26,741 nt of DNA from Ktedonobacterales bacterium. Lineage in GTDB: Bacteria; Chloroflexota; Ktedonobacteria; Ktedonobacterales; JADMIN01. Both the position numbers and the translations under genes were made by a program. Shown here piece after piece: positions 2,645 through 20,438 of the stretch; position 1 is the first letter of the stretch; the number at the start of each line of letters is the position of its first letter. Below the pieces are notes generated by a model. The model did no database searches. It was not told the origin of the DNA and saw only the letters and a program-made list of their open reading frames with translations. The stretch lies in contig DASYGC010000353.1 of assembly GCA_036000225.1 (NCBI GenBank), positions 1 through 26,741 on the forward strand. Reading direction: 5' to 3'.

Positions 2645-4174
2645 TCACGGCAGCGGGTCGCCCGCCTGGCTTACCAGCCGCACCGCGCCGTTGGGGTCCA
2701 CCGCGTAGACCCACGAGTCGGTGTGGAGGAAGCGCAGGTTCCAGCTCACCGTGAAGGTCACGTTGTATGCGCCGGGACTGCCCGCGATGGGCGCAACCGC
2801 CAGCTGCGCGCTGCCAGAGTAGGGGCCGTTGGTGCCGAAATCGGGATCGTAGGCGTAGAAGTCGAGCGTGCGGCTGCCTGGCCCGATGGTGAACGTGGCC
2901 GGGGCGACGAACGGCGGATCCTGCGCGCTGTGCGGCGGCAGCGTCGCCAACGCGGCGCGCGCTAGCACGGCGGCGGTCGCGGGCGTCACGCCGATGGCCA
3001 GGTTGGCGCTATCGCGCACCACGGCGATGGCGCCGTGATCGGATGGCACGAAAAGGAGTCCCGCGCCATCCACCGGCAGCGCGGCATCCGGCGGCCAGGC
3101 CACGGGCAGTGGCAATGCGGCCAGCGTCCTGCCCGTGACGCCATCCAGGGTGCGCAGTCCGCGCGCGTCGGCGAGATACACGTGGCCCAGCGCCGCATTC
3201 CAGCCCAGCGCCCGCGCGCCTGCCAGCGCGGCATCCGGCGTCAGCCGCGTTGGCGCGGTGGCAGGCGGTGGCGCCGCCGCCGCCAGATCGGCCAGCTTCA
3301 CGCTGTCCGTGCCGCCATCCCGCAGGAAGAGATAGAGCGTGTCGGTGGCGGGGTCGAGCGGTCCCAGCCGAACGCCAGCGGGCACGATCGTCCGCGCCCG
3401 CAGGGTCCCATGGGTCGCATCGAGCGCCAGCAGGTTGGTGGCGTTGAAGGTGGCTTCAATCAGCACGACCAGTCCGGTGGCGGGATCGTAGACTGGCCCA
3501 TCCAGCCGCGCAACACCCGCGGCGGGCGCGAAACTGAAGCGCGGCGTGCCGTGAAGCGCGTCCACGCCGAGCAGCGCCGGCTGGCCGGCGTTGCTCGCGG
3601 TCAGCAGCAGCGTGCCACTACTGGTCACGATGGCGCCGGTCTCTGGTCCGGCGCTGTCGCCCGCCGGCAGCGCGAACGTGACAAGATGCGCGCCGCTGCC
3701 CAGCGCGAAGACATCCACCGCGTTGGCCGAGATGACATCCACTATCCCGCGCCGCGCATCCACCGCCAGCGCGACCGGATGTTGCGCCGCGCCGACCAGT
3801 GGCGCCTGCGCAATGGTGGCGCCGGTGCGCCCGTTGACGACGAGCAGCGTATCCAGCGCGGGCGCGGCGCCACAGGCGCCGCTGGGCGGGCACGCCGGCT
3901 CCTGGGGGCCAGCCAGCAGCACGAGCTCGCCGCTCTCGCCAACCGCGGCCACGAATGCCGCGCCGGCCTCGGGTCGCAGCACCGCGGCGATCGCGGCGGG
4001 CGGAGAGGCGGGCGCGGGCAGGCGCGCGCTGGCCAGCACCCGGCTGGCGACCAGATGATGGGCGGTGTAGGCACCACCCCAGACCAAAGCGACGACGAGG
4101 ATCGTGCCCAGCGCCCAGAGCCAGGTGCGGCTCCGGCGCGCCGCGGCGGCTACCGGGGGCGGGGCGAGGGTCAC
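2645..4174 (-). CDS. Membrane-anchored extracytoplasmic protein, probable beta-propeller (YncE/YVTN-like)
   Basis: N-terminal TM segment [19 protein letters not shown] and recurring blade-like segments ([36 protein letters not shown]). The GTG start overlaps the upstream stop (GTGA). Confidence 0.6.
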
Positions 4175-7906: not shown

Positions 7907-8749
7907 CTAGCGTGCTGGCGTGCGTCGGGACACCGCGAAGCTGCGTGCCCACCAGCGCGGTAGACCACCACGCTGCGCTGACGCCGCCGCGCTGGCGAGT
8001 TCGCGCGCGGTGAAGGGCACCGGTGAACGTGTCACGATCGGCTGATCGTCCAGCAGGGCCCGCGGTACCGTTTCGACCAACTCGCGCACGCGGCGCGCGC
8101 CCACCAGCCGCTCAGCCGCCACCAGACTCTCCGCCCAGCGTGGCGGCCGCACGCTCAGCGCGTGAGCATCCGATGCCAGTACATGCGCCAGATCGTGGCG
8201 CAGCAGCAATGCGCTGGCGCGTTGCGCGCGTTCGCCAAAGGCGCCCAGCAGGCTCGATGCGGTGATCTGCACCAGCGCGCCGCTCTCCACCAGGGGGACC
8301 AGCAACTCGGGCGCGCGCTGGATGGCGCGCTCGCGTTCGGCATGGGCGATCACGGGAATGATCCCGCGCTGGCGCACCCGGGCGAGGATCACCGGGAGCG
8401 TGACGGGCACACCGCTGCCTGGCAGCTCCAGCAGGAGATACCGCCCACCATTGAGGGTGGCCAGCTCCTGGCGCGCGAGCGCCTCGTCCAGATCGGCATC
8501 CAACGCCACCTCGTGGCCTGGCCAGACTCGCAGGGGCACGCCCGCCCGCTCCAGAGCCTGGCACAACCGCGCCACTCGGTCGCGCACGTGCGCCGGGGAG
8601 AGGCGCGGGTAGACCGCGTTATAGTGGGGGGTTGCCACGACATCGGTCACCCCCGCCTCAACCTCGACACGCGCAAGCGCGACGGCTGCCGCAAGGGTAT
8701 CACAGCCGTCGTCGACACCGGGAAGGATGTGGGTGTGTACGTCGATCAT
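7907..8749 (-). CDS. PHP-family Mn-dependent protein tyrosine phosphatase (CpsB/YwqE type)
   Basis: MIDVHTHILPGVDDG, ATPHY, PGHEV, YLLLEL, IAHAER and ASDAH metal-binding motifs. Confidence 0.93.
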   Translation of the reverse strand: MIDVHTHILPGVDDGCDTLAAAVALARVEVEAGVTDVVATPHYNAVYPRLSPAHVRDRVARLCQALERAGVPLRVWPGHEVALDADLDEALARQELATLNGGRYLLLELPGSGVPVTLPVILARVRQRGIIPVIAHAERERAIQRAPELLVPLVESGALVQITASSLLGAFGERAQRASALLLRHDLAHVLASDAHALSVRPPRWAESLVAAERLVGARRVRELVETVPRALLDDQPIVTRSPVPFTARELASAAASAQRGGLPRWWARSFAVSRRTPAR

Positions 8750-9423: not shown

Positions 9424-10089
9424 ATGAGCAATGTGGCCTTGCGCGTCGTGTCCCGCGAGCCGCAACTCCTGGCGGCGGAGCCGGGCCGATGCTATCACAT
9501 CGCCAAGCGCGCGCTGGATATCGTGGGCGCCCTGATGGGGCTGGCGCTGCTCGCGCTGCTACTGCTGCCGTTTGCCCTGCTCATCAAGCGCGAAGATGGT
9601 GGGCCAGTGTGGTATCGGCGCGAGGCGATCGGGCTGGATCGCCAACGCTTCTATGTCCTCAAACTGCGCACCATGCGCCCCGACGCCGATACCTACTTCG
9701 CGCTTCATCCCGAGCTGCAGCGCGAGTTCCTGATCCATTTCAAACTGCGCGATGATCCGCGGGTCACCCGCATCGGGCGCTTCTTGCGGACCAGCAGCCT
9801 GGATGAACTACCGCAAATGCTCAATGTGCTGCGCGGCGAGATGAGCCTGGTTGGCCCGCGCTATGTCCGACCAGAAGAGTTGGCGCGCTACGGTCTGTTT
9901 GCCGTCGAGCGCGTGCGCATGCGTCCAGGTATCACGGGCCTGTGGCAGACCCGTGGGCGCAACGACATTCCCTACACCATGCGCGTCATCTACGATCGCA
10001 CCTACTACTATACCCGTTCGGTGAGCGGCGACATAGGCATCTTACTGGCGACCATTCCGGCTGTGCTGCGGCGACGCGGAGCCTATTAG
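9424..10089 (+). CDS. Priming phosphoglycosyltransferase / bacterial sugar transferase (small PglC/CpsE type)
   Basis: KRALDI, DGGPV, KLRTM, DDPRVTRIGRFLRTSSLDELPQMLNVLRGEMSLVGPR and RPGITGLWQ. An AAGGA RBS is present. Confidence 0.95.
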   Translation: MSNVALRVVSREPQLLAAEPGRCYHIAKRALDIVGALMGLALLALLLLPFALLIKREDGGPVWYRREAIGLDRQRFYVLKLRTMRPDADTYFALHPELQREFLIHFKLRDDPRVTRIGRFLRTSSLDELPQMLNVLRGEMSLVGPRYVRPEELARYGLFAVERVRMRPGITGLWQTRGRNDIPYTMRVIYDRTYYYTRSVSGDIGILLATIPAVLRRRGAY

Positions 10090-10115
10090 CACCAGACTCG
10101 CGAGGGAGAAAGCAG

Positions 10116-11156
10116 ATGATGTGGAACAAGCGCGTGGAGGGGAAGGCTTCCCCACTCCGTGTTCTGTATGTGACCAGCGCGCCTGATACACCCTACATGC
10201 AAGGCTGGTTACGCGCGCTCGCCACCACGCTGGCGGACGCGGGACATGCGCTGCTGGCCGCCTGCCCGGATGGCAGTCTGAGTGGTGATGCCCTGGCGGA
10301 GGACATGACGGGGCAACCCGCCTATGTGTACGCCACCATTGGGCGCTGGGACGACGTGGGCGGGTGGCTGCATTGGATGACGCTGGTGCGTCGTTACCGT
10401 CCCGACAGCGTGCACCTCGCGCCCGATCTGGATCTGGGCACCGCGACCCGTCTGGCGCTGGCCACTCGCCTCATGCGACCGGTCACGCTGGCGGCTGAAG
10501 CCAGGCAGGCCGCCGTACAACCCCGCGCGCCTCAGCGGGAGAGCGGACCCCAGGGTCAGTGGGTAGATAGCCACCGACCGCTAACGTGTGGCGCGGCGCG
10601 GCCTGATGGTCTGTCTGCCCAGGCGCATGCACGCGAGGGAGCGCATAGCTGGAAGCGTAGGACACATGCGCTGTGCGCATGGCTGTTCTATCGCGTCCTC
10701 GTCACGCAGATCCTCTGCGCTGATGTGCAGACGGCACGGGAGCTCATTCGGACGTACCGCGTCGCTCCCGCGCGCATCAGTCTGCTGTACAGCGGCGGAG
10801 CGGAGGCGCCACATCGGTCGCCTGGTCGCTCGGCCGCCGCGGCGCACACGGGCCAGCGTGCGTGGCGGGCGCCGATCACCGCACCGCAACGTGCCCGCCG
10901 CCTGGTCGCGCTCTTTGAGGTGTTGCGCACTCGTGATCTACCGCAGCCACAACCACAACCACAACTACAGCCAATTACCGCGCCCGAGCGCGCCATACGC
11001 CCCGCGACGAGCCCGCACCCGCGCATCGCATCGCCCCGGCTGGCCGCAGTCGCGGGGCAGGAGATCGAAGCCGCTGCGCCCGCTGGTCGTGCGCTGGTGT
11101 TGGGTGGATCGCGCGCGACCCTCGCAATGATGATCCGGCGTACCGACGCCCGGTGA
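10116..11156 (+). CDS. GT-B (GT4-like) protein retaining only the N-terminal domain; non-catalytic or degenerate
   Basis: LRVLYVT..., RRYRPDSVHL and QILCADVQTARELIRTYRVAPARISLLYSG resemble the GT4 N-domain. No C-terminal nucleotide-sugar domain (no E-x7-E) is present. A GAGGGAG RBS precedes ATG 10116. Confidence 0.55.
   Translation: MMWNKRVEGKASPLRVLYVTSAPDTPYMQGWLRALATTLADAGHALLAACPDGSLSGDALAEDMTGQPAYVYATIGRWDDVGGWLHWMTLVRRYRPDSVHLAPDLDLGTATRLALATRLMRPVTLAAEARQAAVQPRAPQRESGPQGQWVDSHRPLTCGAARPDGLSAQAHAREGAHSWKRRTHALCAWLFYRVLVTQILCADVQTARELIRTYRVAPARISLLYSGGAEAPHRSPGRSAAAAHTGQRAWRAPITAPQRARRLVALFEVLRTRDLPQPQPQPQLQPITAPERAIRPATSPHPRIASPRLAAVAGQEIEAAAPAGRALVLGGSRATLAMMIRRTDAR
10944..10973 (+). 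repeat. Hexanucleotide tandem repeat (CA[AG]C[CT]A) x5 encoding QPQPQPQLQP
   Basis: cagcca caacca caacca caacta cagcca. Confidence 0.8.
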
Positions 11157-11169
11157 AGGAGAACCGTCC

Positions 11170-12435
11170 ATGGAATCCAATCGCCAACGCCCGCGTGTCC
11201 TCCTGCTGTCCCAGTTGGTGGTCTATCCGGCGGACAATGGGCCGCGCGCCAAGACATTGCAAGTGCTCCGGCGTCTGTGCGCGCGCTATGACGTCACCTT
11301 CTGCGCCTTCGCGCGCGACGACCAGGAGGCGCGCAACGCGGATGCCCTGCGCGGCATTTGCCACCGTGTGGAGACCGTGCCACTGCGGCGCACGTTGCCT
11401 GGCGAGGCGCGCTTTCTGATCGAGAGTCTGATCACCGGCGATTCGTACGTGCTGCATCGCGACGAACGCCCGGCGATGCGCGAGATGGTTCGCCGCCTGC
11501 TCGATGAGGAACAGATCGACGTGCTGCACGTCGATCAACTCAACATGATGCGCTACGTCCCGCGCGACTGGCCGGGCACGGTCATCCTGGACGAGCACAA
11601 CGCCGTGTGGCAGGTGGTGGATCGCCTGCGGCAGGGGACCCGCGACCCGCTGCGCCGCTGGATGCTGGGACGTGAGGTGCGTTTGATGCGCCAGATCGAA
11701 GGGGCGGCTTGCGAATGGGCCAGCCTGGTGCTGACGGTGAGCGAGCCAGATCGCGCGGCGCTCGCCGCGGTGGCGGGGGCCACGAGCGCGCCGGTGGCGC
11801 TGGTGCCCATCGCCGTAGACGCCGCCGCGTGCGCGCTGGTGCGCGCCAAACGGCGTCCAGAGGCCGCGCGCCTGCTCACGATCGCGACGCTCTACTGGCC
11901 CCCCAACAGCGAGGGCATCGCCTGGTGGCTGCGCGAAGGGTTCGCCAGCTTAGCGGCGCGCTGCCCCGAGGTGGTCTACGACATTGCCGGTGCGCGCCCA
12001 CCACGCGCGCTGCGCGCGGAGGTCGCGCGCCACCCTGGCGCGCGCCTGCATGGCTATGTGGCGGATGCGGCGCCGTATTGGATGGCGGCCACCGCGCTGG
12101 TGGTGCCGCTGCTCTCGGGTGGTGGGGTGCGGGTGAAGATTCTGGAGGCGATGGCCATGGGCGTGCCTGTGATTTCAACGTCGGTCGGCTGCGAGGGGCT
12201 GGCGGTGCGCGACGGCGAGCACCTGCTGGTGGCCGATACGCCTGAAGCCATCGCGGCGGCCGGCGCCCGGCTGATCGGCGATCCCGCGCTGGCGCAACGC
12301 CTGGCGCGGCGGGCCTATCAACTGGTGTGCGAGCACTATGATGTGCCAATCGCGCTCGCGGCGCTGGATGCCGCTTACGCGAGCGTGCTGGCCAGCCGAG
12401 GTGAGGAGGCGAACGCATGCGCATTGCCTTTGTAA
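11170..12435 (+). CDS. Glycosyltransferase family 4
   Basis: LVVPLLSGGGVRVKILEAMAMGVPVISTSVGCEGL donor-binding motif and N-terminal PADNG...KT motif. An AAGGAG RBS is present. Confidence 0.92.
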   Translation: MESNRQRPRVLLLSQLVVYPADNGPRAKTLQVLRRLCARYDVTFCAFARDDQEARNADALRGICHRVETVPLRRTLPGEARFLIESLITGDSYVLHRDERPAMREMVRRLLDEEQIDVLHVDQLNMMRYVPRDWPGTVILDEHNAVWQVVDRLRQGTRDPLRRWMLGREVRLMRQIEGAACEWASLVLTVSEPDRAALAAVAGATSAPVALVPIAVDAAACALVRAKRRPEAARLLTIATLYWPPNSEGIAWWLREGFASLAARCPEVVYDIAGARPPRALRAEVARHPGARLHGYVADAAPYWMAATALVVPLLSGGGVRVKILEAMAMGVPVISTSVGCEGLAVRDGEHLLVADTPEAIAAAGARLIGDPALAQRLARRAYQLVCEHYDVPIALAALDAAYASVLASRGEEANACALPL

Positions 12436-13667
12436 CCGCCTATCCGCCCTCGCTGGTGCGGGTGCGCGCGTACGCCTTTGTGCGCGAGCTGGCCCGCGAA
12501 CACGAGGTGACCGTGGTCTGTGCCTGCCATACAGCCCGCGAGCAGGCGGATGTGGCGGCGCTGCGCGCGCAAGGGGTGCGGGTCGTCGCGGTGCGCACGC
12601 CAGGCTGGAGCGCAGCGGCCCACGCGACCGGCGCGCTGTTGCTGGGTGAATCGCTGCAGGTGGCCCATGGCGCCGCGACGGCGTTGCGGCGCGCGGTAGG
12701 GGATCTGGTTGCCACGGGCGCGATTGACGTGGTGCATGCCGAGCATCTGCGCACCATTGCCAGCGTGCGCGATCTCCCCGTGCCCGTGGTGTGGGATGCG
12801 GTGGACTGCATCAGCCAGTTGTATGAGCTAGGCGCGCGCCACGGTGCCACACCAATGATGCGTCTGATCGGCCGACTGGAGGCCCAGCGCGCGCGGCGCG
12901 AAGAGCAATTGCTGCTGCACTCATTGCGCCATGTGCTCGTCACCACCGGACGCGACCGCCGGGCGCTGCGCCGGGTATGGGAGGAGACGCGCTCGCCCGA
13001 ACTGCGCCGGAGCGATATCGCTCCCTGGCGCGCGGCGGCGGTGCATGTGGTACGCAACGGAGTAGACCTGAAGTACTTTATACCGGGCCAGTGGACCCGC
13101 CAGGCCAATCTGCTCGTCTTGAGTGGCAAGATGAGTTTCCACGCCAATGTCGCGGCGGCTGAACTCCTCGCTCACGAGATTATGCCGCGCATCTGGGAGC
13201 GACGACCCGACGTTCGGCTGCTCATCGCCGGCAGCGACCCCCCCCGCGCGGTGCAGGCGCTGGGTGCCGATCCCCGAATTGCCGTCACGGGCTATCTGTC
13301 CGACCTGCGGCCCGCCCTCGCGGGCGCTGCCATTGCCGTCAGCCCGACACCGTATGCCGTCGGCGTACAGAACAAGGTGCTCGAAGCGCTGGCCCTGGGC
13401 ACACCAGTGGTTGCCATGCCCGCCGCGGTCGGCGGTCTGAGCGCCATCGCCGGACGTGATCTACTGGTGGCCGGCACCGCCCACTCCTTTGCCCGCACCG
13501 TGGTCGAACTGCTGGATGATGCCTATCAGCGCGCCGCACTGGCACACGCCGGCCGCCAGTACGTCGAACGCTATCACAGCTGGTCCGGCGCCGGGCGGCA
13601 ATTGGCCCAGGTCTACGCGCTGGCCATCGCCGCCTGCCAGCATGGGCGGCTCGACGCTGCCGGTTGA
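12417..13667 (+). CDS. Glycosyltransferase family 4
   Basis: VRNGVDL, SGKMSFHANV and GVQNKVLEALALGTPVVA. A GAGGAGG RBS is present, and the gene overlaps the previous one by 19 bp. Confidence 0.92.
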   Translation: MRIAFVTAYPPSLVRVRAYAFVRELAREHEVTVVCACHTAREQADVAALRAQGVRVVAVRTPGWSAAAHATGALLLGESLQVAHGAATALRRAVGDLVATGAIDVVHAEHLRTIASVRDLPVPVVWDAVDCISQLYELGARHGATPMMRLIGRLEAQRARREEQLLLHSLRHVLVTTGRDRRALRRVWEETRSPELRRSDIAPWRAAAVHVVRNGVDLKYFIPGQWTRQANLLVLSGKMSFHANVAAAELLAHEIMPRIWERRPDVRLLIAGSDPPRAVQALGADPRIAVTGYLSDLRPALAGAAIAVSPTPYAVGVQNKVLEALALGTPVVAMPAAVGGLSAIAGRDLLVAGTAHSFARTVVELLDDAYQRAALAHAGRQYVERYHSWSGAGRQLAQVYALAIAACQHGRLDAAG

Positions 13668-13802: not shown

Positions 13803-15854
13803 ATGGAAAGCCACCCCAAGCAAAGCGATACCCGGCGGTATCTGGCGATGGCCAGGCGCTGGTGGGGCCTGCTGCTGGCAGGCATGATCATCACGGCGGT
13901 GGGCGCGCTCGCCTTCAGCCTGGTGGAGCATCCCGTCTACAAAGCCGAGGCCGTGCTGGTCGTTGACCAGCGATCGGCGGGGCAGAGCAGCTACGACAAT
14001 GTGCTGACCAGCGATCAGCTCACGACGACGTATGTGACGCTGATCACACAGCCCACCGTGCTGCAGGCAGCCGCCGCACAGGTGTCTGGCACCGATCCGT
14101 TGGTGTTGGCCCATCATGTGACCGTCACGGCCCCAAGCAATACACAACTGATTCAGATTGATGTGGACGACACGAATGCCCCGCGCGCCGCTGATCTGGC
14201 GAACGCGGTGGCCAATGCGTTTGTCACGCAGGAACAGCAACAACTGTCCATTGCGCTGACCACCTCGCATCAACAGTTGCTGGTGCAATTGGCCGCGGCG
14301 AACACCAGCGTCCAAACGCTGACCAGCCAGTTGGCGCACCTGCAGGCGGTCGCGCCAAACAGTCCGCAAATCGCCCAACTGCAACTCCAGTTGGCCCAGG
14401 CCACCGCCCGACAGCAGACGCTGCAGGATGTCTCCAATCAACTCGCCGCGCAGGATGTGGGCGCCAATACGAATATCGGCATCTTTCAGTCAGCCACGCC
14501 ACCCCTCCAACCCGACCACCCACGCCCGCTCATCAACACGTTGGTCGGTGCGCTGGCCGGATTGCTGCTCGCGGCAGGTGTGGTACTCTTCCGTGAGTAT
14601 GTGGATGACCGCGTGGATACCGAGGAGAAGGTGCGGTCGCTGCTCGATCTGCCCACCCTGGCGCAGATCGCCAACCTGGCGCACCGGACACCAGTGCTGA
14701 CCGACGCCGCACGGATGGATCTGGCCGAGAGCTATCGCATCCTGCGCACCAATCTCAGTTTCACCACGCTCGACCGCCCCCTGCGCACCATCGTCATCAC
14801 CAGCGCGCTGCCCGGCGAAGGCAAGAGCGTGACCGCCATCAACATCGCGCTATCGCTCGCGCAGGCCGGCAAGCGGGTGCTCTTGATCGATGCCGATCTG
14901 CGCCGCCCCTCGATCCACCACCTGCTCAAACTCAACAATCAGAGCAGCGGACTGTCGCTGCGGCTGCTGGATCGCCAGCGCGATAGCGACACGCAGACCC
15001 TGTTCGCCACCGTACCCCATGTGCCTAACTTGCTCGTCGTGCCGGCTGGCCCGACACCACCCAATCCGACCGAGTTGCTCGCATCGCACCGGCTGCAGTC
15101 CTTCCTCGCGCAGATGCTGCGTGGTGGCGCGGGCCTGGCGCCCTTCGACATCATCATCCTCGACACGCCACCGGTTGGGCTGTTCGCCGATGCCAGTGTG
15201 GTGTCCGCCGAAGCTGACGGCACGCTGCTGGTCGTCAACGCCCAGCGAACGCGCCAGGCGCAGGCGCTCCAGGCGCGCGAGGCGCTGGGGCGGGTCAACG
15301 CCCACGTACTGGGCGTCGTCCTCAATCGGGTCAAGGCCGTCGGTCAGGGTGCCTATGGTGTCTATCGCGCCTCGTATGCTTCCGGGCGGCGTGCAACGAA
15401 CGGAGAGTGGGCCAGTTTCGAAGATGATCCCGTTGAGCTTGCCGTCGACCCGGCCGGTGGTGTCGTGGGTCTGACCGACCTGGCGCGATCCGCCGTCCCA
15501 GCGGCGATCCCAGCGGCGATCCCAGCCGCGATCCCAGCCGTACCCCAACTGGCGGATGAGTCTCTCCCCGCTGGCGAGACCAACGGCGAGACCAACGGCG
15601 AGGCGCGCGCCAAAGCGAACGACAAAGCGAACGACAAGGCCGACGACAACGGCCACCGGGCCGGCAAAAATATCGCCGCCCTGCGCGCGAACCAGGCCAT
15701 GCGCGATGCGGTGCGCCACGGGCGCCTCCAGGCGCTCGACCAGTCCCTGACGAGTCTGGTAGTTGAGGCCCGCAAGGGTCAGTCCAACGGCCAGTCCAAC
15801 GGCCACTCTAATGGCCATGGACCCGCGATTGACGGCGGCGCTTCGCTCGGATAG
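13803..15854 (+). CDS. wzc: Wzc-type polysaccharide co-polymerase fused to a BY-kinase (CpsC+CpsD/CapB architecture)
   Basis: Wzz-like N-terminus with two TM segments and a coiled coil, AESYRILRTNL, Walker A SALPGEGKS, Walker A' IDADLRRP, Walker B IIILDTPP and Tyr cluster GAYGVYRASY. Confidence 0.93.
   Translation: MESHPKQSDTRRYLAMARRWWGLLLAGMIITAVGALAFSLVEHPVYKAEAVLVVDQRSAGQSSYDNVLTSDQLTTTYVTLITQPTVLQAAAAQVSGTDPLVLAHHVTVTAPSNTQLIQIDVDDTNAPRAADLANAVANAFVTQEQQQLSIALTTSHQQLLVQLAAANTSVQTLTSQLAHLQAVAPNSPQIAQLQLQLAQATARQQTLQDVSNQLAAQDVGANTNIGIFQSATPPLQPDHPRPLINTLVGALAGLLLAAGVVLFREYVDDRVDTEEKVRSLLDLPTLAQIANLAHRTPVLTDAARMDLAESYRILRTNLSFTTLDRPLRTIVITSALPGEGKSVTAINIALSLAQAGKRVLLIDADLRRPSIHHLLKLNNQSSGLSLRLLDRQRDSDTQTLFATVPHVPNLLVVPAGPTPPNPTELLASHRLQSFLAQMLRGGAGLAPFDIIILDTPPVGLFADASVVSAEADGTLLVVNAQRTRQAQALQAREALGRVNAHVLGVVLNRVKAVGQGAYGVYRASYASGRRATNGEWASFEDDPVELAVDPAGGVVGLTDLARSAVPAAIPAAIPAAIPAVPQLADESLPAGETNGETNGEARAKANDKANDKADDNGHRAGKNIAALRANQAMRDAVRHGRLQALDQSLTSLVVEARKGQSNGQSNGHSNGHGPAIDGGASLG
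15497..15818 (+). repeat. Four separate 12-bp tandem arrays in the wzc 3' tail
   Basis: cccagc[gc]gcgat x3.7 (15497-15540), ggcgagaccaac x2.5 (15573-15602), aaagcgaacgac x2 plus variant (15612-15647), and ggtcagtccaac/ggccagtccaac/ggccactctaat (15777-15818). Confidence 0.85.
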
Positions 15855-15940
15855 TGATGAACCATCGCGCCAGGCGCGCCGCGGAAGCGGAGAGGCGCCC
15901 GGCGCACGCGGAATGATACGCGACAGCATTGGAGGACGGT

Positions 15941-18900
15941 GTGGCAACGAGCCCATCGGCGACGGGGACCATGCCCCCCAGCCAGCGGACCGGACCAGAT
16001 ACCCGCGGCGCCCGGCGCGCCACGCTGGTGCAGATGGCCGCGTACCTCATCACCATCCCGATCTCGATCCCCGCCAATATCCTGCTGGCACGCTATCTTG
16101 GCCCCGCGCAATTCGGCGATTATACCTGGGCGATGCTGGTGCTCTCGTTCTTCGCGCTGTTCTCGACCATGGGCACCGAGCAGATCATCGTGCGTGACCT
16201 GAGCACCAGCGAGCGCTCGGCCTGGCCGGCGGTGATGACCACGGCGATTGGGCTGCGGCTGGTCACCTCCACAGTGGCCCTGGCGCTGTGCTGGGGGGTG
16301 ACCTTGCTGCTGCCGATCTCGGCCAACCAGCGCCTGCTGGTGCTGGCGGCCAGTGGCACCCTGCTGTTCAGCTTCCAGTTTTCGAGCAGCCTGAAGACGA
16401 CCTTTGATCTGGGCTTCCGCTCCGAGCAGCACATGCTCACACCCGCCGCGTTGCTGGCCATCGATCGGGTGGTGACGGCGCTGCTGATCGGCGTTGGCGT
16501 GTGGCTCAAGCTCCCGTTGTTCTGGCTGGCGTTGTTCATCGTTTACTCCGACGTGCCGTTCTTCGTGCTGCTGGCGCTGGCCAGCTGGCGCGCGCATGGC
16601 TGGCGTATCCGGCTTCCCCACTGGCGCGAGTTCGCGCAATTGCGGATCAGCCTGCCGCTGATGCTGGACAATACCCTGAGTTTCATCCATCACCGGGCCG
16701 ACATCTTTCTGCTTGCCGCCATCTCGGGACCCTTCAGTGTCGGCATCTACGCCGCCGCGCAGCGGGTGCTGGATCCGCTGGGCTCGGCGATCAACATGTT
16801 CTGTACCTCTTTCTATCCCGCGCTGGCTTCAGCGCGCGAGCAATCGCCCACCTCCTTCGCCCGCACGCTGACCACCGGGTTGAGCTATGTGCTACTGGCG
16901 CTGGCGCCACTCGCGGTTGTGCTTACCTTGCGCGACCGCGAGGTGGTGGCGCTGCTCTATGGCGCGAAATACGCCGGATCGGCGTTGCCACTGGCCCTGC
17001 TGATGTGGGCGCTGGTCGCGGTCGCGGTCATGGAGGTGGTCTACTCCGCCTGCCTGGCGGCACGCATGGAGCGCTTTGTTCCCTGGGTATCGGGGCTGGC
17101 GATGGTTGGCAACCTCAGCCTGAACGCGCTGCTGCTGCCGCACTGGGGCGCAACGGGGGCGGCCTGGTCCACGCTGGGCAGCGAATCGCTGCAGGGGCTG
17201 GTGCTCGGGGTCGCCCTGGCACGACGCGAGCGCACACTGCCCTACCTGCGCCCTCTGGCACGCATTGTCATCTGTCAGGTGCTCCTGGCGGCCATCCTGC
17301 TGGTGGGCCAGCGCGTGCCGCTGCTCATGCTGTTGCCGCTGGCCACGGTGGGCTATCTGCTCGCGGCCAATGCCACCGGAGCGTTACCGCTGCGGCCCGC
17401 GCTGGTTCAGACGCACGCCACCCTGATCGAGTTGCGCCAGCGCCTGGCGCGAACCGGCCACGGCGGCGCGTGGGCGAGCGGACCGGCCTTGAACGGATTG
17501 GCCACACTGGCCGCGAGTGGCGCGTGGGGCGTGGGAGTGCTGGACGCCCTTCCCAGTCGCCTATTCGCCGTCAGCTGGCAAGCGCGCTTCCACCGCTGGC
17601 TCGTTGCGGCCCAGGGGTCGTGGCCATCGCTGGGCCATGCGTTCACCTCCACCACGACACAGGTGGCGCCGGCCTACGCGTACGCCTCAGGCAACGCGAG
17701 TGTGCCGGGGCGTCTCACGACCTTCGAACTCGCGCTGGTGCATGCGGCCGCCGGGCCCCGCGGTCGCCTGCCACGGTGGCCAGGCCTGCCCGGCTGGGCC
17801 ACCACACTCGCGCTGGGCGCCCTCTGCCTCAGTTCCAGCGTGGCTATCAGTCTGAATCCGAAGCTGGCCGGCGCGGCGCTGATCGCCCTGGTGCTGCTGG
17901 CGCTGACCTGGCAGTTTCCCATGGAAGCGCTGATCGGCATGGCGCTGGTGCTCCCATTTTACGACTTCATGCTCCAGGTGCTGCGGCTGAAGCTTGGACT
18001 GAGCGGTACGGAGTTGCTCGCGGCGCAATCGCTCAAGGAAGTGGTGTTGGTGGTCGCCATCGTCGCCACACTGCTGCGAAACGTCCGCACCCGCACGGCC
18101 AGTGGGCGCTGGAGCCTGAGCGGTGTGCTGGTGCTGGGCATCGTGGCACTCACCATCGCGTGGATGCCGCTGGCCTATTCCACGACGATCGCGCTCTATG
18201 GCGCGCGCTCGATGCTCGAACCGTTTGTCTTCTGGCTGGCGGTCTATCTGGCCCGCCCCGACGCGCGACGCATCCAGCAAATGGTCTCCGGGCTGATCGT
18301 CGTCGCCACCATCAGTTCGCTGTTCGCGATCTTCCAGCACTTCTTCTGGAAGAGCTTCTACCTGGCCTACGACTACAATGGCGCGACCACCTGGGCCGGT
18401 GGTAATTTCTACGCGGTGGGGTTGAATGTCGATCGCTCATCAGCCTTTATGGCCTTGCCGCAGGAGTTCGGCGCCTATCTGATGCTGGCCATCGCGCTCA
18501 CCGTGAGCTGGCTTGTCGCGACGCGCCGCGCGCGACTGTTCGTGCCACTGATCATCATGGTCGGCGGACTGCTTGTCACCTTCCAGCGCAGTTCGTGGAT
18601 CGGCACCGTCGTCGCGCTGCTGGTGTTCCTCTGGCTCGCCATTCAGACGCGACGCTGGCGCCATCCCCTGCTGGTAGTGGGTCTGGTGGGCGCGGTGCTG
18701 GCCGTGGTTGCCGTGATCGTCGTGGCGCGTATTGACGTGGCCCAGATGCTCTCCGCCACGCTGACCCTGAACGATCCGAGCGCCCACGCGCATTACACCG
18801 AACTGTTCAACGATGGGCCGCGGCTGATCGGCGCCAATCCCTTTGGCCTGGGCACGGGTATGAGCGGTGTACGCACCGAGTCGTTCACCGCCAACCTCGG

Positions 18901-19216
18901 CCAGTTCTACAACGAAACCTTTTACTGGACGGTGGCGGCGCAGTGGGGCATCCCTGGGCTGCTGCTGGTGGTGGCGTTCCTGGTGGCCCTGGTCGCGCGC
19001 GCACAGGGCCTGGCGCTCGATCCGCGCGCGGGCGAGCTGACGCGGCGCCTGGGCGCGGCGGTCGCCGCGACCACCACGGGCATGTTGGTCGCCTCGGTCA
19101 CTTTCAACCAGTGGCAACTGCCCACGTTCGCCTACACCTTCGGGCTGGTCTGTGGCCTGCTGAGCGCCTCAGCCGCCCACAGAGGTGCATCCCAGACACA
19201 GATTGGCAGGTCGTGA
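15941..19216 (+). CDS. Fusion of a Wzx/RfbX-type flippase (N-terminal) and an O-antigen-ligase/Wzy-type polymerase (C-terminal)
   Basis: Flippase motifs LARYLGPAQFGDY, VGIYAAAQR and LNALLLPHWGATGAAWSTLGSE. After a ~130-aa linker come Wzy_C-like motifs TFQRSSWIG, NPFGLGTG and YWTVAAQWGIPG. There is no in-frame stop. GGAGG lies 5 nt before GTG 15941 (the ORF track starts at TTG 15929). Confidence 0.85.
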   Translation: MATSPSATGTMPPSQRTGPDTRGARRATLVQMAAYLITIPISIPANILLARYLGPAQFGDYTWAMLVLSFFALFSTMGTEQIIVRDLSTSERSAWPAVMTTAIGLRLVTSTVALALCWGVTLLLPISANQRLLVLAASGTLLFSFQFSSSLKTTFDLGFRSEQHMLTPAALLAIDRVVTALLIGVGVWLKLPLFWLALFIVYSDVPFFVLLALASWRAHGWRIRLPHWREFAQLRISLPLMLDNTLSFIHHRADIFLLAAISGPFSVGIYAAAQRVLDPLGSAINMFCTSFYPALASAREQSPTSFARTLTTGLSYVLLALAPLAVVLTLRDREVVALLYGAKYAGSALPLALLMWALVAVAVMEVVYSACLAARMERFVPWVSGLAMVGNLSLNALLLPHWGATGAAWSTLGSESLQGLVLGVALARRERTLPYLRPLARIVICQVLLAAILLVGQRVPLLMLLPLATVGYLLAANATGALPLRPALVQTHATLIELRQRLARTGHGGAWASGPALNGLATLAASGAWGVGVLDALPSRLFAVSWQARFHRWLVAAQGSWPSLGHAFTSTTTQVAPAYAYASGNASVPGRLTTFELALVHAAAGPRGRLPRWPGLPGWATTLALGALCLSSSVAISLNPKLAGAALIALVLLALTWQFPMEALIGMALVLPFYDFMLQVLRLKLGLSGTELLAAQSLKEVVLVVAIVATLLRNVRTRTASGRWSLSGVLVLGIVALTIAWMPLAYSTTIALYGARSMLEPFVFWLAVYLARPDARRIQQMVSGLIVVATISSLFAIFQHFFWKSFYLAYDYNGATTWAGGNFYAVGLNVDRSSAFMALPQEFGAYLMLAIALTVSWLVATRRARLFVPLIIMVGGLLVTFQRSSWIGTVVALLVFLWLAIQTRRWRHPLLVVGLVGAVLAVVAVIVVARIDVAQMLSATLTLNDPSAHAHYTELFNDGPRLIGANPFGLGTGMSGVRTESFTANLGQFYNETFYWTVAAQWGIPGLLLVVAFLVALVARAQGLALDPRAGELTRRLGAAVAATTTGMLVASVTFNQWQLPTFAYTFGLVCGLLSASAAHRGASQTQIGRS

Positions 19217-19220
19217 GTTG

Positions 19221-20438
19221 ATGTCGCAGGTGCGGATGCCGCATATCGTGTATGTGTGTGCCGCTCCGGTCTACGGCGGCGCGGAAGAATATCTCATCGG
19301 CCTGGCGGAGAACGTCAGGCGGGCAGACTGGCGCGTCAGTGCGCTGCTGCCCCAGCGCCCCGGCTTCGCGGGCGCCGTCGCGCGGCTGGAGGCCGCGGGG
19401 GTGGGTGTCGCCACTGGACCGATCAAGACCAGCGAGGACTATCCCTGGCCTACCCTGCTGCACCTGGCCGATGTGCCACAACGCGCCTGGCTGGAGCGCA
19501 CCCTGCGCGCCTATGCGCCCGATGTGGTGCACATCAACCAGCCTAACACCGAGGGTGGACAGTTGGTGCTGGCGGCGGCCGCCCGCCTCGCGGGGGTACC
19601 CGTCGTCACCACCGTCCACGCCTATGATAGCATCGGCGCACTCGGCTACCGTCTGGGCAGGCTGCGCGATGCCATCGTCGACTGGCACTACCGCCGCGTG
19701 CGGGCGATCAGCGTACCGGCGCCTACCGCCGCCCGGGTGTTGCAGCAGGCGTATCGCCACACGCGTGGCAAAGCCAGCGTGGTCGGGCCAGCGATCGATG
19801 CGGCGCGTTTCGCGCCCGCACGCGCCGCGGTGGGCGCCGCTGCCTGGCGGGCCCGTCTGGCGCCGGATGGCGCCACCCGGCTGGTGGGCGTCGTTGGCCG
19901 GCTCTCGCCCGAGAAAGGGCAGGTCGCGCTGGTGCGCGCCTGGCCACGGATCGTCGCCGCGGCGCCGGGCGCGCGGCTGGTGCTGGCGGGTGAGGGCCCC
20001 GCGCGTGGCGCCATCGAGGCGCTCTGCCAGGCAGCGGGCATCAGCGACAGCGTCGTGCTGCTCGGGGGAGTGGCGCACGACGACGTGCCCGCACTGCTGG
20101 GCGCGTTGGATGTCGTCGTGCTGCCCTCGCGCTATGAGTGCCTGCCGCTGGCGATTCTGGAAGCGATGGCGGTGGGTCGTCCCGTCGTGGCCTACGCGAT
20201 CAACGCGATCCCGGACGCCATCGCGCATGAGGAATCGGGCCTGCTGGTGACCCCCGGCGACGATGTCGCGCTGGCGGCTGCCATCCTGCGCATCCTGCGC
20301 GACCCCGCGCTGGCGCGATGCCTGGGTCAGTGCGCGCGCCAGGTGATCGAGACGCGCTTTACTGCCGCGGTTCAGACGCACCAGATTCTTGACCTGTATC
20401 AGCGCGTCCTGTGCGCGCCGGAAGGAACGCACCAATGA
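19221..20438 (+). CDS. Glycosyltransferase family 4
   Basis: GGAEEY, VGVVGRLSPEKG and VVLPSRYECLPLAILEAMAVGRPVVA (E-x7-E). Confidence 0.93.
   Translation: MSQVRMPHIVYVCAAPVYGGAEEYLIGLAENVRRADWRVSALLPQRPGFAGAVARLEAAGVGVATGPIKTSEDYPWPTLLHLADVPQRAWLERTLRAYAPDVVHINQPNTEGGQLVLAAAARLAGVPVVTTVHAYDSIGALGYRLGRLRDAIVDWHYRRVRAISVPAPTAARVLQQAYRHTRGKASVVGPAIDAARFAPARAAVGAAAWRARLAPDGATRLVGVVGRLSPEKGQVALVRAWPRIVAAAPGARLVLAGEGPARGAIEALCQAAGISDSVVLLGGVAHDDVPALLGALDVVVLPSRYECLPLAILEAMAVGRPVVAYAINAIPDAIAHEESGLLVTPGDDVALAAAILRILRDPALARCLGQCARQVIETRFTAAVQTHQILDLYQRVLCAPEGTHQ

Follow-up and report, generated by a model that had tools for sequence, protein, structure and literature searches.

The 26,741-nt window analysed here, the whole of the stretch taken from contig DASYGC010000353.1, holds a complete, typical Wzx/Wzy-dependent exopolysaccharide (EPS) operon (Table 1). 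The central gene encodes a flippase and a polymerase-like domain on the same polypeptide chain, and the position of the downstream GT4 gene is consistent with membership in the same operon. The CpsB/CapC-type phosphatase is expected to be the partner of the Wzc kinase. No outer-membrane exporter gene was found within the window. The fusion protein is the only polytopic membrane protein encoded in the EPS locus, in keeping with the claim of an earlier note on this DNA that the locus has no other flippase or polymerase. Genome-wide, five other, stand-alone Wzy_C genes are present. The source genome is a metagenome bin of 914 contigs (77% complete, 5% contamination) that shares its GTDB order with the Ktedonobacteraceae.

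Table 1. Features of the EPS locus and of the Wzx-Wzy fusion gene, with the metagenome contigs that cover the junction
Feature	Position	Strand	Remarks
CpsB/CapC-type PHP tyrosine phosphatase	7907..8749	-	Pfam PF19567, 165 bits
Priming transferase Bac_transf	9424-10089	+	Pfam
GT4-type glycosyltransferase genes (three)	9942-11156, 11170-12435, 12417-13667	+	Pfam
Wzc-like co-polymerase	13803..15854	+	Pfam; Wzz/GNVR domains joined with a P-loop tyrosine-kinase-type domain; adjoins the fusion gene upstream
Shine-Dalgarno-like GGAGGA	15931..15936	+	5 bases 5' of GTG 15941; read from sequence
Fusion gene	15941..19216	+	GTG 15941, 1091 aa; TGA stop 19214-19216
Wzx-type MOP flippase domain	15998..17404	+	P0002 residues ~10-478; aligns lengthwise with 14-helix MurJ
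Linker	17405..17791	+	P0002 residues 479-607, ~130 residues
Wzy_C / GT-C-type polymerase-like domain	17792..19213	+	P0002 residues 608-1081
QRSSW motif with Arg873	18584..18598	+	Arg invariant in the 15-sequence alignment; candidate Und-PP phosphate-binding residue
FYNETFY	18905..18925	+	Large extracytoplasmic loop; Tyr980, Glu982; read from sequence and alignment columns
GT4 glycosyltransferase	19221..20438	+	ATG five bases past the fusion-gene stop
Logan contig coverage, X1	16811-18031		
Logan contig coverage, X3	16925-17348, 17344-19300		
Logan contig coverage, X4	16196-18100		
Logan contig coverage, X5	16640-18031		

The fusion gene lies in one open frame without stops (15929-19216, forward strand) that offers three candidate starts, TTG 15929, GTG 15941 and ATG 15971. 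The GTG start yields the product on record for the contig, and the ATG start yields the 1081-aa product P0002, whose numbering is used for the domain limits. The in-frame joining of flippase, linker and polymerase proposed in the earlier note holds in independent assemblies: in four soil metagenome runs the junction is spanned by Logan contigs with zero gaps or indels, and three more assembled contigs encode the full-length 1081-aa product again (99-100% identity), free of insertion, deletion or stop. Third-position GC stays at 0.79-0.92 from ~15950 to ~19250, including 0.81-0.85 in the linker part, and is thus of the coding type throughout. Between 17300 and 17950, a scan of 20 bases around each in-frame ATG, GTG or TTG codon found no Shine-Dalgarno-like motif, in contrast to the start of the gene itself, which has one. 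On the read and contig evidence and the lack of such a motif, artefact, frameshift and internal-start readings were rejected. The exact protein is known from only one population, with copies 98-100% identical. Among the population SNPs listed, 24 are synonymous and eight non-synonymous; this partial sample divides (synonymous:non-synonymous) into 18:1 for the Wzx half and 6:5 for the Wzy half, which suggests weaker constraint on the latter.

Structures were modelled with AlphaFold2 as two overlapping halves, because MAFFT stacked the ~480-residue Wzx and Wzy homologues on each other. The Wzx half was predicted with pLDDT >90 over residues ~20-470, as a two-lobed, all-helical MOP fold (12-14 transmembrane helices). 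Foldseek matched the model to MurJ (7WAW/6NC8, target TM-score 0.76-0.78 over ~500 columns) and to WzxE (9G9N, target TM-score 0.76), in agreement with the earlier description of a complete Wzx flippase. Pfam Polysacc_synt_3 (PF13440) scored 70.9 bits against a cut-off of 23 (residues 52-351, P0001 numbering) and Polysacc_synt (PF01943) 60.9 bits against 28.2, and the alignment of stand-alone Wzx homologues reaches fusion residue ~476. With 45.4 bits against a cut-off of 800, the protein is related to the NCBIfam equivalog NF041871 (Wzx_EPS) and is not a member of it.

The linker begins with an Arg-rich segment, continues through a moderately hydrophobic stretch (~510-528) and ends in an Arg/Pro-rich segment that leads into the first Wzy helix. 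Its pLDDT is mostly <50 in both half-models, and a search for linker homologues found none. Kyte-Doolittle hydropathy over 19 residues peaks at 1.26, short of 1.6, and the segment carries 11 Lys and Arg residues versus three Asp and Glu. With no transmembrane-grade hydrophobic peak and a net positive charge, the linker fits a cytoplasmic tether, the location that the earlier note had proposed to test.

The Wzy half is more divergent in sequence, and its assignment to a complete O-antigen-ligase/Wzy-type domain agrees with both family and fold searches. Pfam Wzy_C scored 37.4 bits, barely over the cut-off of 31.7 (residues 874-1014, P0001 numbering), and 42.2 bits in the whole-genome search, so that Polysacc_synt-type and Wzy_C families all lie above their cut-offs on one protein. 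The model (pLDDT 80-92) has a predicted GT-C-type membrane fold (WaaL/SEDS-like); its best PDB match by Foldseek is WaaL (7TPG, E 2.5e-5, target TM-score 0.54), and FtsW (8P1U and 8BH1) ranks next. A sequence-profile search of the PDB with the Wzy alignment gave no match at E values up to 1, and WaaL was retrieved by the fold search only. The nearest sequences are the stand-alone Wzy_C proteins P0023, P0078, P0079 and P0125 (22-28% identity), and comparison with stand-alone Wzy proteins reached 130 bits. A word-index search that used only the Wzy half returned no matches, and a five-sequence Wzy profile retrieved 14, all of them stand-alone Wzy_C proteins.

Similar to WaaL (CAZy GT121, clan GT-C1), the Wzy half belongs to the Wzy_C Pfam family and has a conserved Arg that follows a transmembrane helix, and the two align over 420 columns with 16% identity. 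The ligase His in the large outer loop has an acceptor-activating role (PMC10920833); in the column of this residue (His313 of 7TPG) the fusion protein has Tyr980, with a conserved Glu two residues on. The earlier note had read YNETFY in place of the usual H-N motif. That reading is correct and the His-to-Tyr change is real, but the His is itself variable, being present in four of the 14 relatives (the four nearest) and replaced by Ala, Ser or Gly in the others; conservation falls instead on Glu982 and Arg873. Eleven of the 14 relatives share Glu982 (12 of 15 rows in all), and glycine motifs are kept as well. As the motif loop is modelled with pLDDT <50, the spatial correspondence of Glu982 to the ligase His is tentative. 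Arg968 is retained in the four nearest relatives only (15-sequence alignment). By analogy with WaaL Arg191/Arg265 (PMC10920833), Arg873 is a candidate for binding the carrier diphosphate; in inverting polymerase families (BP-Pol, clan GT-C1) the site of the ligase His is taken by Asp or Glu (PMC10920833). Since the ligase-type His varies among relatives and most of them retain the Glu two positions further on, the catalytic set, judged from the alignment, is probably of the polymerase type and non-defective. An inactive enzyme was rejected as an explanation of the His-to-Tyr change, as that His is not conserved across the nearest relatives.

The Wzy_C family spans ligases, O-oligosaccharyltransferases and polymerases, and the C-terminal half of a genuine fusion might instead be a WaaL- or PglL-like ligase/oligosaccharyltransferase, which would move the flipped glycan from undecaprenyl diphosphate onto an acceptor in the wall, a lipid or a protein. 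WaaL is the top structural match, and the five other Wzy_C genes of the genome are a possible source of polymerase. We consider this assignment unlikely. The PDB holds few Wzy polymerases, so WaaL would be expected as the top match under either reading. The Wzc-type co-polymerase/kinase and the CpsB phosphatase in the operon imply Wzy-dependent polymerization, the locus has no other polymerase candidate, and the conserved Glu in the absence of the ligase His fits the inverting polymerase families. Ktedonobacteria are described as being of the Gram-positive type and lacking lipopolysaccharide, which also counts against a ligase. A Wzy-type polymerase thus remains the preferred identity of the C-terminal half.

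The Wzx half has its nearest relatives in a conserved Ktedonobacterial family of Wzy-Wzx fusions (30-38% identity), with the two modules in the opposite order. In the tree it is sister (SH-aLRT 99) to the clade of these reverse-order fusions (support 100). The family (P0003-P0017) includes a protein from the cultured Tengunoibacter tsumagoiensis Uno3 (P0016, 1065 aa, NZ_BIFR01000001.1), and its members align with each other over ~1000 residues at 37-48% identity. Full-length collinearity with the protein studied here is absent, its N-terminal half matching only their C-terminal halves. Its Wzy half gave no match to the Wzy halves of the family by phmmer or tblastn, and a profile comparison gave only ~20% identity. 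Synteny (tblastn over 23 loci, together with gene tables) places the fusion gene directly downstream of the Wzc gene in a shared EPS locus; the Wzy-Wzx loci share the order GT4, Bac_transf, Wzc, fusion gene, and their counterparts of Bac_transf and of the GT4 at 12417 show 45-54% identity to the genes in the window. The same position may also be occupied by split wzy/wzx pairs that overlap by 4 nt or lie 4 nt apart. The search for the same architecture recovered fusions in the opposite order, but no Wzx-first orthologue among 40 genomes from its family or order and 300 from its phylum. One locus, L043, which resembled a split version, was left out because its frames are fragmented in the metagenome-assembled genome, presumably of long-read origin to judge from its name.

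The Wzx-Wzy order arose either by a second, independent fusion or by a module swap. To judge from sequence similarity, the Wzy module was probably swapped in from a different polymerase lineage, as the Wzy half is nearest to stand-alone polymerases. What has been kept is the tether and no particular arrangement, since the nearest relatives fuse the opposite order at the same cluster position. In one syntenic locus of one bacterial order, the two modules thus occur in three states: fused Wzy-Wzx, split with a 4-nt overlap, and fused Wzx-Wzy with a different Wzy module. This argues for selection on proximity and 1:1 stoichiometry rather than on an interface or an order, and it indicates that the polymerase module is exchangeable while the flippase is retained.

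The two halves could also work as separate proteins, through proteolysis in the linker or additional translation of the Wzy half from a start inside the gene; the fusion would then serve co-expression only. The long linker with its low model confidence and lack of detected homologues would allow this, and in related loci the same task falls to split pairs whose stop and start codons overlap. The motif expected of an internal start is nevertheless missing from the 17300-17950 interval, unlike at the gene's own start, and the reverse-order fusions stay single ORFs (1015-1122 aa) in 20 of the 22 Ktedonobacterial loci; two separate products are accordingly considered very unlikely. Finally, a fused frame due to misassembly or sequencing error, or to recent read-through in a decaying gene with a non-working Wzy half, might be suspected from the fragmented bin, the absence of the Wzx-first order in close relatives, the non-canonical Tyr and the 6:5 SNP ratio of the Wzy half, but is highly improbable against the same indel-free frame in four runs and three other assemblies, coding-level third-position GC across linker and Wzy half, the kept Arg873, Glu982 and glycine motifs, a confidently predicted Wzy fold, and an expectation of ~1:3 rather than 6:5 without selection.

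The gene is thus likely a genuine single unit encoding a ~115 kDa membrane protein, in which a Wzx-type flippase (~14 helices) is tethered to a Wzy-type GT-C polymerase via a flexible cytoplasmic linker. In the mechanism that we propose, the Bac_transf and GT4 enzymes of the operon would work at the cytoplasmic face and assemble the repeat unit on undecaprenyl diphosphate, which the N-terminal half would flip to the outer face. There the C-terminal half, kept next to the flippase at a fixed 1:1 ratio, would add the unit to the growing chain, with Arg873 binding the diphosphate and Glu982 activating the acceptor. Chain length would be set by the upstream Wzc-like co-polymerase/kinase together with the CpsB phosphatase. 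The tether might favour channelling of substrate between the halves, as the earlier note suggested.

The part set is shared with canonical pathways such as E. coli WzxE/WzyE/WzzE (enterobacterial common antigen) and P. aeruginosa PslK/PslJ/PslE: a priming phosphoglycosyl transferase, glycosyltransferases, a MOP flippase, a GT-C polymerase and a co-polymerase with a kinase. Wzx and Wzy are separate in those systems and covalently joined here. The statement that the two usually have separate genes is true of model organisms; it fails for the order to which this genome belongs, where Wzy-Wzx, Wzy-GT4-Wzx, GT4-Wzx, Wzx-GT2 and Wzx-acyltransferase fusions are common. Similar to the Wzy-Wzx family, the protein combines Wzy_C, a Polysacc_synt flippase and a long polar linker (35-149 residues in the family) on one polypeptide. 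It differs in placing Wzx first, in its unrelated linker and in having Y-N-E-T where the family has the canonical H-N-Q-Y. The Wzy-GT4-Wzx (1338-1394 aa), GT4-Wzx, Wzx-GT2 and Wzx-hexapeptide acyltransferase fusions of the same order likewise join Wzx to a pathway enzyme, with different partners or a different order; in no examined case does Wzy come immediately after Wzx.

Direct hand-over of flipped repeat units from Wzx to Wzy is a long-standing proposal, and a natural fusion is a classic genomic sign of two proteins that work in contact. The proposal is open to bench work, since the cultured T. tsumagoiensis Uno3 carries a sister fusion. A literature search found no described natural Wzx-Wzy fusion, and the reviews and structure papers covered describe Wzy-Wzz/Wzc complexes and no physical Wzx-Wzy complex. 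The protein is a real, order-swapped form of a recurrent architecture for which no published description was found, and whose function we infer. Wzy alone is hard to express and purify, and a single-chain fusion may aid structural work on this polymerase.

A single Wzy has been described within the lumen of a co-polymerase ring, PslJ in PslE (PMC13434223). A protein of ~26-28 helices would not fit a lumen holding one Wzy. The occurrence in one syntenic locus of both fusion orders, each with a long linker that is probably flexible and cytoplasmic, beside a Wzc-type co-polymerase raises the speculative, and on balance doubtful, idea that flippase and polymerase need to stay within reach of each other although the Wzc transmembrane ring lies between them. 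In that case the linker would run beneath the Wzc protomers or through the space between them, and Wzx would deliver flipped units at a lateral gate of the ring; alternatively, these bacteria may have a different, larger assembly. If true, the architecture of these natural fusions would speak directly for a Wzx-Wzy-Wzc machine, and they would offer a ready single chain for cryo-EM.

The fusion gene is real; it represents an architecture that recurs and is apparently unpublished, here in a new form with the domain order swapped. It lies in an uninterrupted plus-strand open reading frame (15929-19216), for which GTG 15941, with GGAGGA located 5 bases before it, is the most plausible start, giving the 1091-aa product recorded from the contig. 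A start at ATG 15971 gives a 1081-aa form (P0002), whose residue numbering is followed here. Chance long reading frames are frequent in DNA with the G+C content of the window (63-74%), and third-position GC was therefore examined. It was 0.79-0.92 in the fusion frame from ~15950 to ~19250, 0.81-0.85 across the linker, and lower in the two other frames. No Shine-Dalgarno-like motif was found within 20 bases of an in-frame ATG, GTG or TTG over the scanned 17300-17950 stretch. Pfam assigned Polysacc_synt_3 and Polysacc_synt to the N-terminal half and Wzy_C, barely over the cut-off, to the C-terminal half, while the NCBIfam Wzx_EPS equivalog gave a weak match (45 bits, cut-off 800). The continuous frame, the coding GC signal through the linker and the presence of all three Pfam families on one protein bear out the earlier note, which had read the gene as a flippase joined in frame to a Wzy-type domain.

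The 90% identity cluster contains 4 full-length members, found on separate contigs (NCBI, JGI) and mutually 99-100% identical, and DNA of the locus was detected in at least 9 soil metagenome runs from different samples. In 4 of these runs, Logan contigs span the Wzx-linker-Wzy junction free of gaps, insertions, deletions and stop codons. The population SNPs listed, a partial sample with 63 additional differences over the same 3.5-kb stretch outside the tally, comprised 24 synonymous and 8 non-synonymous changes, at ratios of 18:1 in the Wzx half and 6:5 in the Wzy half, with 2 of the non-synonymous ones falling 5' of ATG 15971. In this partial sample purifying selection acts on both halves and is apparently weaker on the Wzy half. 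Three neighbouring differences (A>G, A>G, G>C; 19003-19007) were seen in 4/4 runs examined; residues 1012-1013 are Gln-Gly in the window and Arg-Arg in both the population and P0002, and the reading in the window may stem from a minority allele or from an error of local assembly.

The structure was modelled as two overlapping halves, Wzx plus linker and linker plus Wzy. The first model had a mean pLDDT of 80.6 (>90 at residues ~20-470). Its top PDB matches were MurJ (target TM-score up to 0.78 over ~500 aligned columns) and WzxE (0.76), and the N-terminal half is a complete MOP flippase whose helix count is the longer one, as in MurJ. In the second, pLDDT was 80-92 at residues ~630-1070, and two outer loops of the Wzy half, the motif-bearing loop among them, were modelled poorly. 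The best fold match of this half was the ligase WaaL (7TPG, E 2.5e-5), with FtsW next, a likeness that reflects the known GT-C1 relationship (PMC10920833). Together with the Wzy_C match, these models uphold the reading of the C-terminal half as Wzy/WaaL-like and of both halves as complete. The linker (residues 479-607) had a pLDDT mainly below 50 in both models and no homologues in the sequence search. None of its hydrophobic windows reaches transmembrane grade (maximum 1.26), and Lys and Arg (11) outnumber Asp and Glu (3). Since the termini are cytoplasmic in both MOP flippases and WaaL-type enzymes, a wholly cytoplasmic tether would be the simplest topology.

The earlier note had also pointed to a departure from the usual H-N motif of the Wzy_C loop. 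The exchange of His for Tyr is correct (Y-N-E-T), but the His is no family constant, because the column varies among the nearest relatives, from H-[S/V]-E-[S/N] in the 4 closest to mostly A-G-E-S in the next 7. Alignment with these relatives revealed Glu982 and Arg873 (in an S-R-S-type motif) as conserved. In inverting polymerase families an Asp or Glu is reported at the position of the ligase His313, and the diphosphate is bound by conserved Arg residues (PMC10920833); the conservation of Glu982 and Arg873 thus favours a putative polymerase-type active site.

A phmmer search run exhaustively over 1.84 billion representatives identified the nearest relatives of the Wzx half as the C-terminal halves of 936-1171-aa proteins (28-36% identity), in which Pfam places Wzy_C before Polysacc_synt, an order opposite to that of the fusion protein. 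A Wzx-domain tree groups Wzy-Wzx fusions and a few split forms in one clade (support 100) and places the query as its sister (SH-aLRT 99). Among species-representative genomes, Wzy-Wzx fusions occur in Ktedonobacteria (MAGs of Ktedonobacteraceae, Dictyobacter and Ktedonosporobacter, and the cultured Tengunoibacter tsumagoiensis Uno3, whose reading frame is identical to P0016), and one MAG bearing them shares its GTDB order with the window's genome. At 20 of 22 such loci, in genomes of 45-57% G+C, the reading frame is 1015-1122 aa long. The ktedonobacterial loci share their gene order with the window: a GT4 gene (~50% identical to the gene at 12417), Bac_transf (45-53%) and Wzc (26-31%), followed by the Wzy-Wzx gene. 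In two relatives inside this clade, wzy and wzx stand as separate genes at the same position, with a 4-nt gap or a 4-nt overlap between them; the fused and split states therefore interconvert, and the split loci are natural controls for the fusion.

The Wzy half had no phmmer or tblastn match to the Wzy halves of the Wzy-Wzx family, with whose profile it shares only 20% identity, although homology is certain (99.1% probability). Its best matches are stand-alone polymerases, the closest (P0023) from a locus with a separate Wzx. The P0023 contig also carries 3 sulfotransferase genes, GT2, GT4 and a hexapeptide transferase, a gene content that suggests a sulfated polysaccharide cluster. Two members of the Wzy-Wzx family (P0006 and P0013) likewise pair divergent Wzy halves with conserved Wzx halves, so exchange of the polymerase module seems recurrent. 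Two events are needed to account for the fusion gene: the modules may have fused twice, independently in the two sister lineages, or a single fusion may later have undergone rearrangement with module replacement.

Several large clusters of proteins that combine a flippase with Wzy_C (900-1170 aa; MurJ, MatE or Polysacc_synt with Wzy_C) are listed in the protein atlas from Actinomycetota, Chloroflexota and Bacillota, but no relative with the Wzx-then-Wzy order appeared among the best 150 matches, in 40 genomes from the same family or order, or in 300 genomes of the phylum. No publication on a natural Wzx-Wzy fusion was found in the literature. Relatives of the window's genome also encode Wzy-GT4-Wzx, GT4-Wzx, Wzx-GT2, Wzy-GT4 and Wzx-hexapeptide-transferase fusions, identified by Pfam on stop-to-stop frames in high-GC DNA and hence with uncertain N-terminal limits; Wzx is often joined to cytoplasmic tailoring enzymes (hexapeptide-repeat acyltransferase, GT2, GT4) in these relatives.

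The evidence best supports a genuine bifunctional flippase-polymerase, its halves probably tethered in the cytoplasm. Such a tether would fix a 1:1 Wzx/Wzy stoichiometry and could provide the proximity for passing flipped lipid-linked units from flippase to polymerase, under the control of the adjoining Wzc/CpsB pair. Recent structures site one Wzy inside a Wzc-like ring (PMC13434223), whereas the fusion would comprise 26-28 helices, which puts the location of the flippase in question. Linkers of fusions in both orders measure 35-149 residues and, speculatively, long ones might permit the flippase to remain outside the ring. The Wzx-first order is known at shallow evolutionary depth, which limits its significance, and the proposed function is drawn from sequence and models.

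The window holds a complete Wzx/Wzy-type operon, and only the fusion protein in this locus shows three or more strong hydrophobic peaks. No other protein on the contig matches Polysacc_synt or Wzy_C, in agreement with the claim that the locus has no second flippase or polymerase; the rest of the genome contains 5 stand-alone Wzy_C genes and further MOP flippases.

Features of the window and of related loci (window positions, or locus handle and positions)
Feature	Position	Strand	Remark
CpsB-type phosphatase, DUF4012 protein		-	
Bac_transf, then 3 GT4-type genes		+	first in plus-strand order
Wzc-like co-polymerase/kinase	13803-15854	+	follows GT4-type genes
Fusion gene	15941-19216	+	Wzx 15998-17404, linker 17405-17791, Wzy 17792-19213
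GT4, polysaccharide deacetylase, ATP-grasp enzyme, APH-like kinase		+	in this order after fusion gene
Second operon gene	9942-11156	+	
509-aa ORF	2645-4174	-	between RNase PH and DUF4126 genes
MurJ homologue, window's own genome	L009:934-3501	-	855-aa ORF
Split wzy/wzx	L066:2448-5707		after Wzc gene; same genes in L067
Split wzy/wzx	L065:2848-5443		after Wzc gene
Wzy_C - full GT4 glycosyltransferase - Polysacc_synt	L059:1390-5574	+	1338-1394 aa (three loci); same family/order
Wzy_C - full GT4 glycosyltransferase - Polysacc_synt	L060:4071-8189	-	as L059
Wzy_C - full GT4 glycosyltransferase - Polysacc_synt	L061:3972-7988	-	as L059
Wzx + hexapeptide repeat	L013, L015, L018, L020, L021, L023		Pfam
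Wzx + GT2	L017, L063		Pfam
GT4 + Wzx	L062		Pfam
Wzy_C + GT4	L064:6040-9411		Pfam; Wzy_C weak, sub-cut-off

The 509-aa frame, outside the polysaccharide locus, has two hydrophobic peaks and no Pfam match. In the MurJ homologue (contig C857), ~345 residues without a Pfam match precede the MurJ domain; this extension may be genuine, or it may stem from the high-GC open frame. The second operon gene has a sub-threshold match to the N-terminal GT4 domain (23 bits) and no match to the donor-binding domain, which agrees with a separate earlier description of it as a 'half glycosyltransferase'.
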